From a virus (Duplodnaviria; Caudoviricetes), in IMG/VR virus record IMGVR_UViG_3300029305_003510, positions 128,001-192,000 of that record: a stretch of DNA of 64,000 nt. One strand, written 5' to 3'. Position numbers and translations under genes: made by a program. The stretch's first letter is position 1. Each line of letters begins with the position of its first letter. Positions 20,939 through 49,462 of the stretch are shown here, piece by piece. The notes beneath the pieces are model-generated. The model saw only the letters and a program-made list of their open reading frames with translations, did no database searches and was not told where the DNA came from.

Positions 20939-23374
20939 ATGAGTAAGAAAAAAGGTAAGAAGAGCAGTTCCACTTCCAAGCAGAGTGAGCAGAACCTTGA
21001 GCTCCTGCAGACTCTCGTTGGCCGTAATGCGGACTATGACGATCAGGATGGTTTTCAGACTCTAGCTCCCACCCCTGAGGGCCAGAAGAAGCTGGATGAG
21101 ATCCGTCTCCGTCGGTCCAAGAAGTCGGGCAATGTGGATAAGCCTGCTCCGGTGGAAGCTCGTCCTTACGAGGACTACAATCCCAACAAGGCTGGCAGTA
21201 TGCTGAACAATGTCATCGATAAGATCAAGGACGGCAAGTTCGGCAAAGCCTTGGAGATCCGTGATAAGAGCAAGCTGGAAGCTTTGATCGATGCGTTCAT
21301 GAACATGGATCAGGATCTTCCCAATGCTTCTAAGGTCAACACAGAAATTCGCAAATTGATCCAGATCGGCAAGAGCTTCTATGAATACGATGGCAAGCAG
21401 AGAGAGTTCATTGACAATAATACCTATGATGGACTCATTGCTCGTTATCGCGGCTTTGGTTTCGAGGAGCCTACCGGTATTGTTCCCAGTGATGCAAAGA
21501 AGACCGGCATCAAGTATCGGACTCTCCATAATAACATGGACAAGGCGTATGCTCTGCGCATTGGAGATCCGGTGCCTGATGGTGTTAAAGAGTCTGACAA
21601 GATTGAGGCCTTCCTCACTCGAGTCTATAAGGCTCTGGGCATCAGTTCTGAGGTGGCAATCGAGTTGGAGCTGTCTCCTAAGATCGATGGTGTAAGTGTC
21701 AACGGTACTATCGTCGGTGACGGTCTGACTGATCCTCAGACTCGCGGTGATGAGGATGAGTCCGTCAAGATCCCTGGTATGGACGGACTTGAGGTTGGCG
21801 AGGGTGTTACTGAAGATACCTTCGGTATCCAGTATGAAGTCTTTGTGACCTACGAGGATGCCCGGAAGGCTTCCGAGTATCTGAAGATGGCTGCACCTTA
21901 TGTCAGCCCTCGTCATGCCGCATCTGGTATTGTCAACCGTCTTTGCTCTGGTGAAAACGATGAGCTTCTGCAGTTCCTGAGCCTGTATCCCATTGAGGCT
22001 GAAGGTCTGGACGGAACCTACAAGGAGAGAATGGACTATCTGTCTAACTTTGCTGTGGTTCCCAAGGATATGATTGATCGCAAGATCATCAAGGGTAATC
22101 TCAAGGAGCTGCTGGATAAGATCGAGAAGACCTTCGAGAAGTATAATAATAAGCGTGAGGATCTGGACTATGCGATTGACGGTATGGTCATCACTGTGAC
22201 TGATGATGACTACCAGAAGACCATCGGCCGTGAAGGTCGTACAAACCTGTATCAGATCGCTCTGAAGTTCGATCCCGCAACTGCCATCGGTGAGGTCAAG
22301 GGTATTCATCTGGACACTGGCAAGAAAGGTTTCCGCACTATCCAGGTTGATCTGAAACATCCTGTGTTCCTGGATGGTGTAAAGTATGACCATGTGCCGG
22401 TTCTGTCTGCTGGGCTGTTTGATGATATGGGTCTGCGTGTTGGATCCGAAGTTAAGGTCCATCGTGTGGGTGATGTTATCCCCAGCATCACTGTTACTAA
22501 GCACGGTGATGGTAAGGCGCTTAAGATGCCCAAAACCTGCCCCGATTGTGGCGAGAAGCTGGATATCAAGAACAAGAAGCTCTTCTGTGGTAACTCCGCA
22601 TGTAAGGGTAACTTGGCCGGTAAGCTAGTTGGATTCATGGCGGGTATCGGTTTGGAGGGTTACAGCGATGCATTTGCTGAGATGATCATTCAGACGTTTA
22701 ATGGTTCTAACGAGGAGCTTGAAGTTCAGGTCCGTTCTATTGGGGATCTGTTCAAGCTTACTCCTGGAATCTTCAAGAGCGCTGGTATCACTACGAAAGA
22801 TGCTCGCGAATTCCAGAACCGGTTGATCGCCGCGGTAGAGACTGCGCCTGACTACACCTTGTTAGGTAATATCGGAATCCCCGATCTGGGTCCTGCTCGC
22901 GCCAAGCTTCTGTTGAAGCAGTTTAACGGTTGGGATAAATTCCGTAATGGGATGAAAAATGGGACTTTTATTCATCGTTGCCTGAATGCTCTTGGTGCTG
23001 CCACTGGTAAGAAGGTCGCCACCTATATTTGCGACCGTAAGAACGGTGATAGCGTCAAGTATGATCTGGATGCTATCAGCAAGCATATGAAGAATATTAC
23101 TGAATCCTTCGAGAGCCTGTTGAAAGTCGGTCATACTGGATATACTCCCAGCGATAAGGTAAAAGCAATCTGCAAGGAGCAGAAGTTCGAAATCGTTGAT
23201 GGGAAGTCCTTTGATATTCTAATCACTGGATCTCTCGGTTCTACGACCGATAAGATGGAGAAGGCACGTAAGAACAATCTGCCTATCTTCACCGAGCAGA
23301 TGTTCCTGGCACAGTATGATCCCGATTATGAGTATCCTGAAGAGGATGATCATGACGAGGACGATGAAGACTGA
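20939..23374 (+). CDS. ligA: NAD-dependent DNA ligase
   Basis: PKIDG adenylation motif, TRGD, IDGMV, IALKF, RVGDVIP, CPDC..C...C Zn finger, HhH and BRCT-like C-terminus; ~130-aa N-terminal extension. Confidence 0.93.
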   Translation: MSKKKGKKSSSTSKQSEQNLELLQTLVGRNADYDDQDGFQTLAPTPEGQKKLDEIRLRRSKKSGNVDKPAPVEARPYEDYNPNKAGSMLNNVIDKIKDGKFGKALEIRDKSKLEALIDAFMNMDQDLPNASKVNTEIRKLIQIGKSFYEYDGKQREFIDNNTYDGLIARYRGFGFEEPTGIVPSDAKKTGIKYRTLHNNMDKAYALRIGDPVPDGVKESDKIEAFLTRVYKALGISSEVAIELELSPKIDGVSVNGTIVGDGLTDPQTRGDEDESVKIPGMDGLEVGEGVTEDTFGIQYEVFVTYEDARKASEYLKMAAPYVSPRHAASGIVNRLCSGENDELLQFLSLYPIEAEGLDGTYKERMDYLSNFAVVPKDMIDRKIIKGNLKELLDKIEKTFEKYNNKREDLDYAIDGMVITVTDDDYQKTIGREGRTNLYQIALKFDPATAIGEVKGIHLDTGKKGFRTIQVDLKHPVFLDGVKYDHVPVLSAGLFDDMGLRVGSEVKVHRVGDVIPSITVTKHGDGKALKMPKTCPDCGEKLDIKNKKLFCGNSACKGNLAGKLVGFMAGIGLEGYSDAFAEMIIQTFNGSNEELEVQVRSIGDLFKLTPGIFKSAGITTKDAREFQNRLIAAVETAPDYTLLGNIGIPDLGPARAKLLLKQFNGWDKFRNGMKNGTFIHRCLNALGAATGKKVATYICDRKNGDSVKYDLDAISKHMKNITESFESLLKVGHTGYTPSDKVKAICKEQKFEIVDGKSFDILITGSLGSTTDKMEKARKNNLPIFTEQMFLAQYDPDYEYPEEDDHDEDDED

Positions 23375-23429
23375 AACAAACAAGAAAGAACTATGAAAAG
23401 TTGCCGAATCGGCTCCGAGTAAATGTTAA

Positions 23430-23469
23430 GTCTTGTGTGAAGTTATTCTTAAATGATTTCACACAAGAC
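23430..23469 (+). terminator. Long hairpin, probable ligase terminator overlapping a late promoter
   Basis: GTCTTGTGTGAA...TTCACACAAGAC 12-bp perfect stem, extendable. Confidence 0.65.
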
Positions 23470-23477
23470 ACTTTAAT

Positions 23478-23825
23478 ACAAAGAGCCTGATCGAGTGGAA
23501 TCATTCGTATCGGCGGCGAAAGGTCGCCTGACCGCAGTCCCTGACGAGGGGTTGTGGAAGGGAAGATCGAGTCGTGGTTTCTACTTGCTGTGTTCAGTCG
23601 GTAGGAGTCGGCTAGCGGGCGTGGAAGAGAGATTCGTGCATCCACCCGTGTGGGACGAGTAAATGCTGGATGTCAGTGATGTCTGGTATAAGAAAAGTAT
23701 CGAACGACGTGGTTTATCCATGCCTCTATTAGAACTGTGCTTCTCCCCGTTAGCTCATTCATCAATCCAATTATAAGTTTCCAACAGAGTCGCATATCTT
23801 TAATTGGGTATGCGGCTCTTACTTT
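23478..23825 (+). ncRNA. Candidate structured non-coding RNA of unknown family
   Basis: No convincing ORF; late-type promoter GACA-CTTTAA-TA at 23467-23478; many helices with G-U pairs; terminator-like hairpin 23786-23825. Confidence 0.6.
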
Positions 23826-23911
23826 AATTGAACCGCCCTGTCATTCCGCAGGGCGCGTCAAGTTAGCCTGAAGAACAGAATCTTCAGTGATTATAAATTG
23901 ACGTGACAAAT

Positions 23912-23923
23912 AACACAACAATA
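23912..23923 (+). promoter_or_regulatory. Late-type promoter
   Basis: AACA-CAACAA-TA upstream of the HU-like gene. Confidence 0.6.
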
Positions 23924-24017
23924 GGAATCACATGTATTTGGTAGATGCCGTGGAAATGCTACCGCGGTTCTATATAAAAAATCTAATCTCTCTGTATTAC
24001 GAAGGAGGAAATTTGTC

Positions 24018-24674
24018 ATGTCTAGTATCAGTATCGCAACCTGGATGGCCCTGGAGAAGCCTAGCTTTGAAAATTTCAATGAGTTCATCGCCATCCGACT
24101 CGAGGACGGTATCACCCGTTCCATCGCCGAAAAAATGAAGAATGACATCGCCTCTAAGGGTGAGTCCACACTGACTCTGCCCTGGGGCACTTACCATGCT
24201 GAGGTAAAGGCTGCCGGTGAAGGCGGCAATATCACTCCCTCTTGGGAACCCAGCAAGGCTTTCCTGAAGATGCTCAATGATGATGGTGCAAGCCGTGAGC
24301 GTCGTCAGGATACTTTTGATGCTGAGTATGTTCAGCTGCTCAAGGACTATGTCGCATATGGTTACTTCTATCCTGAAGAGGTTAAGGATGCTCCTGCTAA
24401 GGATAAGGGTCTGCGCATGAGTGATGATGAAGTCGATTACTTCCTGAACAATTATGCACAGGTTCTGGCCACCATCGCCCGTGATAAGCAGCGCTCTGGT
24501 AAGACCTATCGTCTTGAGATCGACGAAGGATTCCCTCATGGCTCCTTTGATTTTGAGTACAGTGATGACGATATCAAGGTTAAGTTCGTTGCTCATAAGG
24601 TCTTCAAGCAGTATCTGAAGGATGACGACGTGGCCACCAAGGCTCGCGACGCTGACTTTAGCGAGAACGACTAA
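24018..24674 (+). CDS. Tandem HU/IHF-like protein (acidic, arms truncated)
   Basis: Two segments resembling the HU core: GESTLTLPWGTY...PSWEPSKAFLKMLN and GFPHGSF...KVKFVAHKVFKQYLKD; strong RBS and high-expression codon bias. Confidence 0.55.
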   Translation: MSSISIATWMALEKPSFENFNEFIAIRLEDGITRSIAEKMKNDIASKGESTLTLPWGTYHAEVKAAGEGGNITPSWEPSKAFLKMLNDDGASRERRQDTFDAEYVQLLKDYVAYGYFYPEEVKDAPAKDKGLRMSDDEVDYFLNNYAQVLATIARDKQRSGKTYRLEIDEGFPHGSFDFEYSDDDIKVKFVAHKVFKQYLKDDDVATKARDADFSEND

Positions 24675-25700: not shown

Positions 25701-27551
25701 ATGAATGAATTTATTGCTGCATATTGTCACCGAAATGATGAACGTATCAACCGTGATATGTTCGAGCGTAAATACGATAAGCCTCTCGTTGAGTATATTG
25801 TAGATACGTGTAAGAATCTGGAAGTTATCCCTGGTTTGACTTTGGAAAGCTGGGAATTGGTAACTGACCAGACAAAAATTCGCAGCGCTATTGATAAAAG
25901 GCATGCGAAAGATCCTAAGATCAAGAATAATCGCACTCTGGAGCGTCTGGCTCAACCGAACCGGACGCTCTATGATATGCTCTATCTGAACTTCCGTATC
26001 CAGGCAAAAGGAAAGGATGTGCAGGTTCAGAGAAAGGTTCGAATCTTAAAGCCCGTTCGTGGTGGGTGTTATATCCGTAATGGTAAGAAGGTTCGTATCC
26101 TGAATCAGGTCGTAGATAATTCCACTTTCGTAAAAGCGGATGTTCTCAATTTTAAGACCAAGCTTTATCCCATTAAACTTGCAACTGTAAAGTCCAAGCT
26201 AAAGTTTACCGATGGAGAGACGGCCACTTGTGCATGTTTCAGACTCGATCTTCTCTCCAAGGTAACAAATCCCCTGATCTACTATTTGGCTCAGTATGGT
26301 CTGACAGGAACTTTGGAAATGTTCAGTCTGGAAACTGTAATGTCAGTAGTAGATAATCCTCTTGATGAGGAGCACTATATGTACCTCCGACTGCCTAATA
26401 ACGTATATTTGGAGGTACACGAGAAAGCCTTTTATGCGCATGAGTTCATTGCAGCTTTTACTGCAACACTTCATGATGTATTGAAGGGTGACGGTGAGAT
26501 GACCTTTAAGGATGTCTATGATCAGGAATACTGGATGGGTCGTCTTTCTGAGATTTTCTCAAAGAAACGCTATGCAAGCAAAGCTTTACGTGTGTTAGTG
26601 TCTTTCAATAAAATTATGGATGTTGGTGTGAAGAAGCAGCTTGTTATTCGAAAACACCATAAGAAAGATACCTTCACTATCATTCGATGGATGATGACGA
26701 ACTATGGAGATCTGCTCAAGAAAGACTCTCATGATCTTCGATATAAGAGAGTCCGTGCCAATGAAACTCTGGCATATTTCTTCGATAAGCATGTAAGTAA
26801 AAATGTCTACAGTTTATTGAACACCGACAATCCTCCATTCGAAAAGTATATTCGGCTGTTGAACTCGATCAACGAGTATACACTGCTGAAAGGTGCTAGC
26901 GGTGGAGGAAAGAATAGTTCAACGAGTATGTTCCGCTATGAACGATATAATGACTTTGACGCAATCGAGATCTCCCGTTATACTTTGAAAGGTCCTACTG
27001 GTTTGAATGGTGGCAAAAAGGGTATCTCCATGAAATATCGAGATATTTATCCTAGCCATCTTGGTCGGTATGATCTAAATGTTTGCTCGAGTTCCGATCC
27101 CGGTCTAACTGGATATCTCTGTGCAAACGTGCAGTTGGATTCTAGTGGATATTTTGACGTGAAGGATAGTGAGCCGGATAACTATGATCCGGTGATCGAT
27201 GTCATGTTGATGAAATTCGCTGATCCTGACTATGCAGCAAAAAGACGGGATTATATTCAGACCCAGTTGTCTCGTGATGCGGATGGGTTTGTTCGTCTTA
27301 AGCGAAGAAAGACTTCTCGTGAACTTCAGAAGATGTTCCTGGAAGAGCCTGAGAGATATGGTATGTATCGGACCAATGATGGTCTGCGATTAATTCCTAA
27401 GATGGGGGCTGTTGATGCAAAGGGTTTCAAGACTCTTATCCGTCGGCGTACACCTAAGGAAGAGGCTGCAGATATCAGAGATGCACAAGGCTTCATGGTT
27501 CTTAAACCTGTAATCACTAAACTTGACCAGCGGAAAGCTACTAAGAAATAA
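25701..27551 (+). CDS. RNA polymerase beta subunit N-terminal half (non-virion RNAP)
   Basis: G.YIRNGKKVRILNQ and RDIYPSHLGRYDL...SSSDPGLTG match RpoB G.F..NG...V...Q and RDVHPSHYGR...GL. Confidence 0.88.
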   Translation: MNEFIAAYCHRNDERINRDMFERKYDKPLVEYIVDTCKNLEVIPGLTLESWELVTDQTKIRSAIDKRHAKDPKIKNNRTLERLAQPNRTLYDMLYLNFRIQAKGKDVQVQRKVRILKPVRGGCYIRNGKKVRILNQVVDNSTFVKADVLNFKTKLYPIKLATVKSKLKFTDGETATCACFRLDLLSKVTNPLIYYLAQYGLTGTLEMFSLETVMSVVDNPLDEEHYMYLRLPNNVYLEVHEKAFYAHEFIAAFTATLHDVLKGDGEMTFKDVYDQEYWMGRLSEIFSKKRYASKALRVLVSFNKIMDVGVKKQLVIRKHHKKDTFTIIRWMMTNYGDLLKKDSHDLRYKRVRANETLAYFFDKHVSKNVYSLLNTDNPPFEKYIRLLNSINEYTLLKGASGGGKNSSTSMFRYERYNDFDAIEISRYTLKGPTGLNGGKKGISMKYRDIYPSHLGRYDLNVCSSSDPGLTGYLCANVQLDSSGYFDVKDSEPDNYDPVIDVMLMKFADPDYAAKRRDYIQTQLSRDADGFVRLKRRKTSRELQKMFLEEPERYGMYRTNDGLRLIPKMGAVDAKGFKTLIRRRTPKEEAADIRDAQGFMVLKPVITKLDQRKATKK

Positions 27552-46408: not shown

Positions 46409-48507
46409 TATTCTTCATCCTCCTTTTCTTTACTATTTAACCGTTCCTGGAGTTTCTTATTCATTTCAGTAACAGTCGGAAGATTGAACCACACGTTGCC
46501 AAAAGAGATAATATCATGGCTCAGATAATCTGCAGTGAATTCCGCACCTGGGAGATACGAATTGATCTCTTCAATACGTTTCTCTTGTCCCATTGGGAGA
46601 ACATTCTGCCGATCACTAATTTTCTCAGGGATGATCAATCTACCGATTTGTGTAGACTTACTTAAAGATCTGGTAAACTTTGCCCAAGGATACTCAGACG
46701 CAAAGTCCATATCCATTTCATCATCAAACACGTGTTTACTTGGGACGCCGGGGATTAATTCAACACCAGTAGCCGTATTAAAGTCTGGATTACCAACTAG
46801 ACCACCAGGAAGTATCAATTTTTTCTGAATAGAGTCATTATAAATTGAGAGAAGATCACCAGCTACAGTTTCTGCTGCCTGCTGTGAAGTTTCATCAAAT
46901 TCCTCATCACTATCAGAATCATCAACTTCTACTTCAACAGGATCAGATTCGGCAACAGCTTCATCGTCATCAAACCCCTCATTATCTAACTCAGCTCGCA
47001 TTGCTCTGGCTGCTCGGATTTCCTCCATTCGTTCCAAATAATCTTCTGTCTCACCACGGATATAGTTGACATTTGGATTATTGCCCGGAACAAAACCCTT
47101 ACGGAGATACCAGGTATAGTAGATCTGTCGCTGATAGCGAGTCTGCTTAAACAGATTTTCAAGCGGGCAGTTCTGCTGATTCATATCATAAATCATTGAC
47201 ATGCAGTCATTCGTGACAATATCAATCTGAACCTGTCTCACAACGTCAGAAATGTTATAGAAGACAAAGTTCCAGTAGTCTTTCATTGCAGCATTTGTAA
47301 CATCAATACCTTTCTCGAATTGATGTTTACCAACACCAAGTTCAATACGAGCAATGTTATCGAGTTTGTTAGAACCATATGCTTTACGACCTTTACGAAT
47401 GCCTGCATATGACTGCATCTGGTCTATCCAGCAGGTGGTAGATGCCATGCGGATAAAAGTTTTTCTATCAGCGATATCGATCTCCGCACGGTTATCCACA
47501 TTCAGTTCTACAAAACGATATTCCTGTGGAAATGCGGGATCACACATGCAGTCTACATAGTTAAGACCATTCATTTCCATTCTTGCTGCAAGTTTAGGAA
47601 TATCGTAACCGATATTCCAGACACTCATCGTATCCGGACGCACTTTATTGATGGTTTGAAATATTGCCATTAACAGATCACTTTCATGATCGAAAAGTTG
47701 AATATGATATTCTGCCTCCAGATCAATAACACGCTTTTTACCATCTTTTTCAACTTCCTGATGGTCAAACGTATCATGACATTGTTGGATGAATTTATCC
47801 AGATTTGCTTCAAAATGTGCCTGCTGTGGATATCGTTTATGATCTCTCAACAAGAATGTGAATACGTGCGGTTTCATCTTCTCTTTCCGGTTAGAATCAA
47901 AATTGAAGATCAACGTACATGCATTCACTTTATCTAAGTTTGCTGCTTGTTCAGTAGAACTCAGACCAAAGATATCAGCCTCGATATCGAGATATCCTTT
48001 ATCGATGATATGATTTCGCATTGTATTGTAGTGATACCCGAGCATAACCCGATAGTAATCTTCAACGGACATATCAGACATACACGTATACGGCCATTTG
48101 AAGATCTCTTTAGCAGAGCTGCTATTGCCAGTTGCATAAGACTGATCGTAAATAGCTTTCATCACCTGAGAGGGTCTATCAGTGCAATCTTTCAGTTCCT
48201 CGTAGATTGTACGAAGAACCTTCTTTGCTTTTACAGTTTTCGAATATGTTTTATCGATTTCGATATATTCTCTAGGCGTCATGAAACCAGTGCGTTCTTC
48301 AGGTTTAATGAAATAGATCTCCATTTCTGGATCTTTAATAATACGGACTTTTTTCTTATCTTCCGCATCTTTATATACAATAAACAGGGTATCATCTTTC
48401 CCTGTGTTTCGGTGTTTATACTGCTGATACAGTTGTACAGAAAAGATTGTGGCCTGACTTCCTTCAGGCTCACGCAGAATATTATTCATTCCCATAAATT
48501 GCACCAT
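46408..48507 (-). CDS. Family B DNA polymerase, N-terminal subunit (3'-5' exonuclease plus motif A)
   Basis: ExoI YLDIEAD, ExoII WNIGYDIP, ExoIII YNISDV, GGLV..P, motif A DMDFASEYP. Confidence 0.9.
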   Translation of the reverse strand: MVQFMGMNNILREPEGSQATIFSVQLYQQYKHRNTGKDDTLFIVYKDAEDKKKVRIIKDPEMEIYFIKPEERTGFMTPREYIEIDKTYSKTVKAKKVLRTIYEELKDCTDRPSQVMKAIYDQSYATGNSSSAKEIFKWPYTCMSDMSVEDYYRVMLGYHYNTMRNHIIDKGYLDIEADIFGLSSTEQAANLDKVNACTLIFNFDSNRKEKMKPHVFTFLLRDHKRYPQQAHFEANLDKFIQQCHDTFDHQEVEKDGKKRVIDLEAEYHIQLFDHESDLLMAIFQTINKVRPDTMSVWNIGYDIPKLAARMEMNGLNYVDCMCDPAFPQEYRFVELNVDNRAEIDIADRKTFIRMASTTCWIDQMQSYAGIRKGRKAYGSNKLDNIARIELGVGKHQFEKGIDVTNAAMKDYWNFVFYNISDVVRQVQIDIVTNDCMSMIYDMNQQNCPLENLFKQTRYQRQIYYTWYLRKGFVPGNNPNVNYIRGETEDYLERMEEIRAARAMRAELDNEGFDDDEAVAESDPVEVEVDDSDSDEEFDETSQQAAETVAGDLLSIYNDSIQKKLILPGGLVGNPDFNTATGVELIPGVPSKHVFDDEMDMDFASEYPWAKFTRSLSKSTQIGRLIIPEKISDRQNVLPMGQEKRIEEINSYLPGAEFTADYLSHDIISFGNVWFNLPTVTEMNKKLQERLNSKEKEDEE

Positions 48508-48603
48508 CCTATGTGTGTATTCATGTATATAATTTATACCTTATAAGGATGTATGAAAGATTGTGAAAATGTAAGAGAAATAGCCAAAAATGGGCATATT
48601 AAA

Positions 48604-48640
48604 ATTTCCGATTTTGCGACATTTTGAGATATATACTATA
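48604..48640 (+). promoter_or_regulatory. Bipartite early-type promoter
   Basis: ATTTCCGATTT-N15-TATATACTATA. Confidence 0.8.
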
Positions 48641-48775
48641 ATTGTAGAGCAGGATAGATGAAGAGTTTCAAATTCGTCTGTCTTGCTCTACAATTATCTA
48701 TTTTCGCTATGATGGAAGCGATTACAAATAATCCATCGTCAACTGCACAAAAAGGTGCAGAAGAAAGGACTTATT

Positions 48776-49462
48776 ATGAAGATCATGATCAATACTAACG
48801 AGACTGAAATCCGCACCATTATGAGCACTGTGACTGATACCATCCGTGTCTTCGAACCCAACGCTGTCGATGCTCATGAGATCGATCGCGTAACCCATGA
48901 ACTCACTTCCACGGATAGTGTCTACCACTTTGCTCAGAACTGCACCTGCACCCGCAACCACAGTAACTTCACCATCGACATCGATGAGAAGATGGTTCAG
49001 GACCTTGCTCCTGTGATCATCAAGGTTGCCAAGTTGGTTGCACCCATCTATCATGGCGGCAAAGCGTTGCTGATGACGATCAAAAACCTTTGTGAGACAC
49101 TTCCCGAAAGCCTGAAGGTTATTGGAAAGGAGTTTCATGATAAGTGGGCTCTTCGTAAGAATTATCAAGTAGTTCGGCTTGAGAATGAAGACCTGAATCT
49201 CTTGGACATCGTAGTCCTCGAAGACGATGGGAAGAATGATCCTGAGATCACGGATATCTTCCATATTAGCGAAGTCTATGAGAACATGACGGTCCAGCGT
49301 CACATGGTAGCTAAGATGACTCTCGACAAGTCTACCATTGAGACTCACGATGAGGCTATCAAGGTTGCTCGGAAGATGCGTGATAATCTCCGGAAGGATC
49401 TGGAGGCTATGGCTGAGGCTACTGATAGCGATGTCGCTACTGACGAGAAGATCGAATTCTAA
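48776..49462 (+). CDS. Hypothetical early protein
   Basis: AAAGGA RBS; high-expression codon usage. Confidence 0.75.
   Translation: MKIMINTNETEIRTIMSTVTDTIRVFEPNAVDAHEIDRVTHELTSTDSVYHFAQNCTCTRNHSNFTIDIDEKMVQDLAPVIIKVAKLVAPIYHGGKALLMTIKNLCETLPESLKVIGKEFHDKWALRKNYQVVRLENEDLNLLDIVVLEDDGKNDPEITDIFHISEVYENMTVQRHMVAKMTLDKSTIETHDEAIKVARKMRDNLRKDLEAMAEATDSDVATDEKIEF

Follow-up and report, generated by a model that had tools for sequence, protein, structure and literature searches.

The window analysed in this study is a stretch of 64,000 nucleotides that corresponds to bases 128001–192000 of a 230,855-bp IMG/VR virus record. Within it, an 811-aa ORF resembling NAD-dependent ligases (20939–23374; Pfam DNA_ligase_aden) is followed by an ORF-free gap of 643 bp (23375–24017), which extends from the ligase stop codon to the ATG of a 218-aa ORF (24018–24674, + strand). 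The latter is a conserved gene for an acidic, HU-like protein, which provides the context of the RNA described below and lies outside the RNA itself. The original prediction had described a large ORF-free gap of about 640 bp, and the gap indeed proved to be the largest of the window: with regions free of ORFs of at least 100 aa taken as a proxy, 23375–23996 ranked first in the window and third in the whole 230,855-bp genome. Two genes beyond the 218-aa ORF, a 616-aa ORF (25701–27551) was found to be homologous to gp105 of Bacillus phage AR9, the beta-N subunit of the non-virion RNA polymerase (26.6% identity, E 2e-40), and it also matched PHROG 2943, annotated as 'polymerase'. A split multisubunit non-virion RNA polymerase is thus represented by its beta-N part, the one subunit searched for. 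This distant homology to gp105 places the phage, which is uncultured, among the remote relatives of the AR9/PBS1 group, and its genes for the ligase and for polymerase beta-N show loose synteny with those of AR9. The RNA has a G+C content of 0.52 compared to 0.414 for the genome, in which it occurs as a single copy. The two larger gaps without ORFs of at least 100 aa (95385–96305 and 48028–48941 of the genome, outside the window; G+C 0.45 each) may hold further non-coding RNA genes; the second holds the only tRNA of the genome (Leu-CAG, 48061–48147, – strand) and a late-promoter-like motif at 48427 on the – strand.

The ligase and the 218-aa protein were used to reach IMG/VR and metagenome contigs, from which we retrieved loci L035–L055; the metagenome scan with protein alignment yielded 2 loci only. 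Every locus with enough upstream DNA exhibited a stretch of 450–700 bp 5′ of the 218-aa gene, in which called genes were either missing or no longer than 89 aa. Grouping by nhmmer divided these stretches into two types, A and B. Type A comprised the window, L004, L035, L036–41, L042/43, L044, L046, L047, L048, L050 and L055, with L049 being partial. The distinct type-A sequences numbered 12, namely eleven that were aligned and the longer variant L052, which matched both covariance models introduced below over its full length (43 and 27 bits). Across the homologous loci, the RNA constantly preceded the 218-aa HU-like gene, with an unchanged orientation. The interval between the ligase gene and the RNA accommodated between one and three small ORFs (69–138 aa, one with Pfam LPD28) in several relatives (L036 1247–2023, L035 1218–1893, L044 146–892, L047 201–828, L048 182–802, L050 294–772), so this spot seems to be variable. 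As these ORFs split the ligase gene from the RNA, the element travels with the 218-aa gene and not with the ligase gene.

Beyond these loci, type A was not encountered. A blastn search of the gap against GenBank phages gave no match, and both covariance models found nothing in the ligase-to-gp105 region of AR9. Gapped exact patterns of the type-A and type-B cores had 0 matches in 185,579 species genomes and matched only already known contigs in IMG/VR. Such exact-match scans under-detect, because the type-A pattern missed L004 owing to a one-base insertion. A 17-mer from a conserved block matched 22 IMG/VR stretches, 21 of which were dismissed as chance since nhmmer matched the L004 contig only. 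A literature search, incomplete in coverage, returned no description of the type-A RNA.

Directly 3′ of the ligase stop codon lies a long hairpin (23429–23472, + strand) that is probably the terminator of the ligase gene; its match to the Rfam family mir-3167 was spurious (19 bits against a threshold of 86 bits). The 3′ arm of this hairpin overlaps the start of an AR9-type late promoter, GACACTTTAATA (GACA-CTTTAA-TA; 23467–23478, + strand), with A23478 as the predicted start. Late promoters of AR9 share the consensus AACA-(6N)-TA/G, the last base of which is the start site (PMC5312081). The site in the window conforms to this pattern, with G in place of A as the first base here and in several other members. 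The motif RACA-N6-TA was present in 11 of 11 type-A homologues at a constant distance to the first helix, resulting in cores of 271–317 nt, and it occurred in L052 and in type B as well. Genome-wide we counted 219 such sites; 60 of them fell into the 9.9% of the DNA outside long ORFs, where 21.8 would be expected (2.75-fold), and for 47 of these 60 intergenic sites a co-oriented ORF starts at most 300 nt away, mostly within 15–70 nt. The late-type promoter originally proposed at 23467–23478 is thus supported by the AR9 consensus, by its fixed spacing in homologues and by intergenic enrichment.

At the other border, a 14-bp terminator-like hairpin, T1 (23786–23819, + strand), followed by TACTTTAATT / UACUUUAAUU, had been proposed as well, and it was the sole terminator-like site that we detected in 23300–24100. 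The 3′ end of the RNA is probably located near 23825, at T1, as far as the sequence can tell. Equivalent hairpins were present in L035, L042 and L044 and absent from L036, L046 and L055, which renders the 3′ end uncertain. A conserved stem-loop, UUGAAC-[hairpin]-CGUCAA (23828–23861, + strand), lies 3′ of the RNA, with a further hairpin beyond it. Of 12 type-A loci, 9 have a UUGAAC-like motif 3–75 nt past the core; in L048 this distance is 219 nt, and L050 and L047 lack the motif. A stem-loop of the form UUGAAC...(C)GUCAA follows both types of RNA (window, L035, L036, L042, L044, L046, L052, L053, L055), either immediately past the core or past a terminator hairpin; it could mark where the RNA truly ends, direct its processing or bind a protein. 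Further downstream, a second late promoter, AACACAACAATA (AACA-CAACAA-TA; 23912–23923, + strand), was assigned to the 218-aa gene. The separate promoter claimed for this gene held up in the relatives, as 11 of 12 loci carry a late-promoter motif between the RNA and the gene. With a separate late promoter serving the 218-aa gene in these loci, a stand-alone late transcript is the most likely form of the RNA, and the arrangement favours an independent late transcription unit rather than a leader.

The region from promoter to terminator (23467–23825, 359 nt) was predicted to fold at –128.2 kcal/mol on the + strand (z = –3.74), with none of 100 shuffles being as good, while the – strand gave z = –0.64. 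The same asymmetry was observed in all 12 members, the + strand folding 30–45 kcal/mol lower than the – strand and with a more negative z-score. The suggested comparison with dinucleotide shuffles thus came out in favour of the RNA, on the + strand only and in 12 of 12 members. The strand asymmetry of folding stems from the many pairs that are G-U when read on the + strand; together with the covariation described below, it is in line with the selection at the RNA level that such G-U positions had originally suggested. An ORF-free, hairpin-rich region beside replication genes might also be expected of an element acting as DNA, i.e., a replication origin or a packaging or recombination site. The strong strand asymmetry and the promoter motif at a constant distance speak against such an element, and the GC skew shows no turn at the locus, which makes a replication origin unlikely; overall, we regard a DNA-level function as very improbable. 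Likewise, short ORFs exist in the RNA region, such as a 55-aa GTG ORF (23495–23662), and automatic calls of 32–89 aa overlap the RNA in three relatives (L042 1018–1287, L043 1017–1214, L045 941–1039). However, no frame was open in all 12 members, the longest stop-free stretch switched frame, indels were not multiples of three and substitutions in stems were compensatory. The calls in L042, L043 and L045 are probably spurious, and we see next to no chance that the region encodes a small protein.

To assess the fold we used a structure-blind MAFFT alignment of 11 type-A sequences (A6; mean column identity 58%) as well as two covariance models, R1 for the 3′ domain (alignment A8) and R2 for the 5′ domain. 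In A6, the 72 proposed pairs were paired in 90.0% of cells, compared to 40–45% when the 3′ partners were slid by 1–3 columns; this count excludes hairpin P4, the segment of which is unalignable and was therefore left out of covariation scoring. Changes on both sides affected 49 pairs, and 149 compensatory cells were counted versus 27–36 in the slid controls. None of 500 shuffles reached any observed measure, although this control overstates significance because the sequences are related, while the slid control and the counts of pair types are independent of kinship. The R1 alignment of the 3′ domain gave 91.4% paired cells versus about 44% in the slid control, with 33 of 42 pairs compensatory, and the R2 alignment of the 5′ domain gave 88.4% versus 33–46%, with 18 of 29 pairs compensatory. 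The proposed search for covariation among homologues hence yielded a strong signal on the MAFFT alignment and on both alignments based on covariance models. The folded structure is real, and it exists at the RNA level.

The consensus structure is branched and consists of ten helices in two domains, which form a core of about 280 nt (23489–23755, + strand) within an RNA of about 280–350 nt overall. All elements are on the + strand. The first is the 9-bp hairpin P1 with one bulge (GAU-CGAGUG / CAUUCG-U-AUC; 23489–97 / 23502–11), in which 8 of 9 pairs underwent both-side changes and 90.9% of cells were paired in A6. The junction of the 5′ domain is built by H2a (GCGGC / GUCGU; 23513–17 / 23571–75) and H2b (GGUC / GAUC; 23522–25 / 23565–68); pair 53–99 of H2b exhibited 6 pair types and was paired in 11 of 11 sequences. 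P3 (CCGCAGUCCCU/AGGGGUUGUGG; 23532–42 / 23547–57) comprises 11 bp with a GACG loop, and 8 of its 11 pairs were compensatory in A6. P4 (about 23579–23606) varies in length and sequence. The 3′ domain (23610–23755) is closed by the long-range helix P5 (GCUAGCGGG/CCCGUUAGC; 23610–19 / 23745–55) together with P5b (GGAAG / CUUCU; 23623–27 / 23740–44), and both enclose a four-way core that bears P6 (P6a, 23632–37 / 23655–60; P6b, 23641–45 / 23650–54), P7 (23663–74 / 23678–89) and P8 (23708–12 / 23718–22). In P6a every cell was paired and 6 of 6 pairs covaried.

Of six helices drawn in the original prediction, three are supported, one is ambiguous and two are not conserved. P3 and the long-range helix P5 had been predicted and are backed by covariation, and the predicted UUUCUAC/GUAGGAG hairpin corresponds to P4, the segment of which forms a hairpin in 11 of 11 members (MFE –4.9 to –12.6 kcal/mol) despite its variable sequence. 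The GGCGGC/GUCGCC hairpin was paired in 84.8% of cells, but it overlaps H2a and the better-covarying H2b. H2a is invariant, so that covariation cannot test it, and this local hairpin is an alternative to it, which counts against our model of a stand-alone RNA. The GGCGUGGA/UCCAUGCC helix, with 65.7% paired cells, is not conserved and is replaced by the GGAAG/CUUC helix and a local hairpin; similarly, the supposed end-closing helix (23488–98 / 23755–64) gives way to the local covarying hairpin P1. Two tertiary candidates were also discarded: a UUCUAC × UAGAAC pseudoknot of P4, because the sequence of P4 is not conserved, and a pairing of the P3 loop GACG with AGUC, for which no covariation was found.

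The helices are interspersed with about 45 near-invariant unpaired junction nucleotides, mainly in the blocks AAGAAAAGURUCGAAC, UAGUAGAACUGUG, UCGGCGGCG and AGUCGUGGU. A near-invariant unpaired block, AAGAAAAGUAUCGAAC, occupies J7/8 (23690–23707), and no pairing partner was found for it; a second conserved unpaired block, ..UA(G/U)UAGAACUGUG, occupies J8/5b (23723–23739). Their columns are invariant or 90% conserved (J7/8) and conserved (J8/5b) in alignments A6 and A7. GAAUGC and a GAA bulge in P6 are likewise near-invariant in A6 and A7, where the surrounding helices vary. Judged by sequence conservation, invariant unpaired blocks amid changing helices are what would be expected of a specific tertiary fold or of a binding site. 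A loop-E motif (AGUA/GAA) is possible in the strands flanking P8, but its bulged G is replaced by U in three members.

A search of the 64-kb window with Rfam 15 at gathering scores gave 0 matches, including RNase P, tmRNA, SRP, 6S, introns, GOLLD and ROOL; the families covered further comprised raiA, OLE, phi29 pRNA, riboswitches, small ribozymes and group I/II introns. At E ≤ 10, the hairpin artefact at the 5′ edge was the only match in 23478–23825, and the RNA regions of 13 homologous loci yielded none. ARAGORN detected neither tRNA nor tmRNA in the window. The recommended Rfam comparison thus returned no family for the window or for the 13 homologous loci, and the absence of tRNA, tmRNA, SRP and intron signatures, which had been stated beforehand, was confirmed. 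The RNA fits no catalogued Rfam 15 family. The genome's only RVT_1 gene, coding for a 501-aa reverse transcriptase (Pfam RVT_1, 52 bits), is located near the contig end (genome about 227,397–228,902; L061 898–2403, – strand), and the surrounding 3.6 kb had no Rfam match. As it is about 76 kb away, the RNA lacks the adjacent reverse transcriptase that a retron, DGR or DRT ncRNA would have.

In its size, its pair of multi-helix junctions and the large number of its unpaired nucleotides that are invariant, the RNA is similar to large catalytic RNAs, and it adjoins genes for nucleic-acid enzymes, a ligase and an RNA polymerase subunit. A ribozyme, whether it cleaves itself or acts in trans, be it on RNA or on DNA, would have its active site in the invariant junction nucleotides. 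Nevertheless, no ribozyme or intron model of Rfam 15 matched even at E ≤ 10, and an RNase P-like P4 pairing (AAGU/GCUU) failed the covariation test: in alignment A7, read by eye, the change from GCUU to GCCU is uncompensated in this pairing, and P5b covaries instead. We therefore hold a ribozyme to be improbable. Motifs reminiscent of glmS and hammerhead ribozymes (GACGAGG, AUCGAA, CUGAUGA..GAAA) were rejected as well, being in the wrong order, missing stem II and having no Rfam match.

In distant relatives with a 218-aa protein of 50–57% identity, the place of the RNA is taken by type B (L002, L003/L031, L007, L030, L053/L054; RNA at L002 6162–6476, L003 6246–6560, L007 5313–5629, L030 666–946 and L053 928–1241). 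Like type A, it lies upstream of the HU-like gene, has a late promoter, measures about 280–320 nt and is followed by a stem-loop of the UUGAAC type. Its fold gave z = –6.5 on the + strand and –3.9 on the – strand, and 13 of 31 pairs were compensatory across four lineages. The invariant blocks of type B comprise CUAUAAGUAGNUGGGU and CUGAUGNNGAAAGAGGUAG as well as the loop ACUUCGUGGG of a hairpin. The two types could not be aligned, and neither the nhmmer profiles nor R1 and R2 cross-detected them; homology is thus not demonstrable by nhmmer or covariance models, and type B may be either a diverged homologue of type A or a replacement. A resemblance around CUAUAAG between the insert of L052 and type B was not significant.

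The neighbouring protein itself gave few clues. A profile of the 218-aa protein collected 81 homologues. Its sequence had no match in Pfam, PHROG or PDB, and tblastn against 50,697 GenBank phage records gave none either. An AlphaFold2 model based on 53 sequences (mean pLDDT 87.2) displayed two alike halves, each composed of a helix, a sheet of 3–4 strands and a helix. Foldseek returned weak matches only, HU among them (1hue, 1huu; probability about 0.6), so that the model looks like a single-chain HU-like pseudo-dimer. With nothing but weak PDB matches, the fold gives no pointer to an RNA-binding partner. A TATA-rich element of the type (G)TTCTATA(A/T) is kept between the late promoter and the RBS of the 218-aa gene in the window (23960–23990), L051, L052 and L055. 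This element might serve as a promoter of the early (virion polymerase) or host type, in which case the HU-like gene would be expressed continuously, as in AR9.

The constant site upstream of one gene, in the same orientation whatever lies farther upstream, is a point against the stand-alone reading inasmuch as it would be equally expected of a cis-regulatory leader. In that case the RNA would be a riboswitch-like or protein-sensing attenuator in the mRNA of the 218-aa HU-like protein, with the hairpin at 23786–23819 as a regulated terminator. The terminator-like hairpin after the RNA is in line with this assumption, and so is the complex junction, which like large aptamers has unpaired bases that are invariant. 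On the other hand, 11 of 12 loci possess a second late promoter that separates the gene from the RNA. The spacer is variable (140–375 nt) and contains further hairpins, T1 is absent from L036, L046 and L055, and inspection by eye revealed no alternative pairing in which T1 would engage the 3′ strand of P5. Moreover, the distant relatives retain the gene but with the different RNA of type B. A leader is the main rival of the stand-alone reading, but we consider it doubtful.

Compared to phage AR9, the window shares the grammar of late promoters, and its genome encodes the gp105 homologue, but AR9 has no comparable gap or structured RNA past the ligase gene. A precedent is nevertheless found in AR9, where one non-coding gene, that of a tRNA, is under the control of a late promoter (Table S3, PMC5312081). 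Among known RNAs, the type-A RNA most invites comparison with GOLLD and ROOL and with 6S RNA. GOLLD (about 800 nt) and ROOL (about 580 nt) are typical of Firmicute phages, and both adjoin tRNA genes. They are large, ornate phage or prophage RNAs of unknown function that form RNA-only multimers (PMC12286853). The RNA of the window is likewise phage-borne, large, multi-helix and rich in covariation, with conserved junction nucleotides, but its core of about 280 nt is much smaller, has no Rfam 15 match and is not accompanied by an adjacent tRNA. A stable trans-acting RNA that regulates polymerase, in the manner of 6S RNA, the decoy that binds bacterial RNA polymerase, is conceivable for a gene located two genes upstream of a polymerase subunit gene. 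However, 6S RNA extends as one long rod, in which a large bubble at the centre mimics an open promoter. The consensus structure obtained here does not have this shape but is branched with two multi-helix junctions, and no Rfam match links it to 6S RNA.

The explanation to which we incline, and which we hold to be probable, is that of a stand-alone, trans-acting, late structured ncRNA whose conserved junctions bind protein or self-assemble. The conserved promoter, the fold, its covariation and the second promoter support the stand-alone late RNA that had originally been proposed. Accounting for the arrangement of the locus, the non-virion RNA polymerase of the phage would transcribe the RNA late from the RACA-N6-TA promoter, starting at about position 23478, and transcription would stop at the 23786–23819 hairpin or at the next hairpin downstream. 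The hairpin on the ligase side may insulate the RNA unit upstream, as the terminator-like hairpin may do downstream. By analogy with other large structured RNAs, on which the notion of a trans-acting, protein-binding mechanism is based, the folded RNA would then act in trans. Its invariant junction nucleotides would shape a specific site in three dimensions to which a protein of the phage or of the host binds, so that the RNA might serve as a scaffold or decoy in the late phase. Alternatively, the RNA might associate with itself to form an RNA-only particle.

It is rare for a complex RNA of this size to combine dozens of covarying pairs with invariant nucleotides in its junctions, and once understood such RNAs have usually turned out to be ribozymes, riboswitches or ribonucleoprotein cores. 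A more far-reaching reading, which we rate as rather unlikely, is that AR9-like jumbo phages possess a new RNA machine with this RNA as its functional core, be it a new ribozyme class, a self-assembling particle or the obligate RNA subunit of a late phage complex. If this were true, types A and B would be alternative solutions at one genomic address, and such a late complex might control or load the phage multisubunit RNA polymerases or the adjacent HU-like protein. The structure model, the two covariance models and about 16 loci offer a starting point for biochemistry without a cultured host. For annotation, the RNA is relevant in that gene callers put small, probably spurious ORFs over it in some relatives. 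The clade to which the phage belongs consists of uncultured giant phages that encode RNA polymerases of their own, and the RNA would add a late ncRNA gene to their known gene set.
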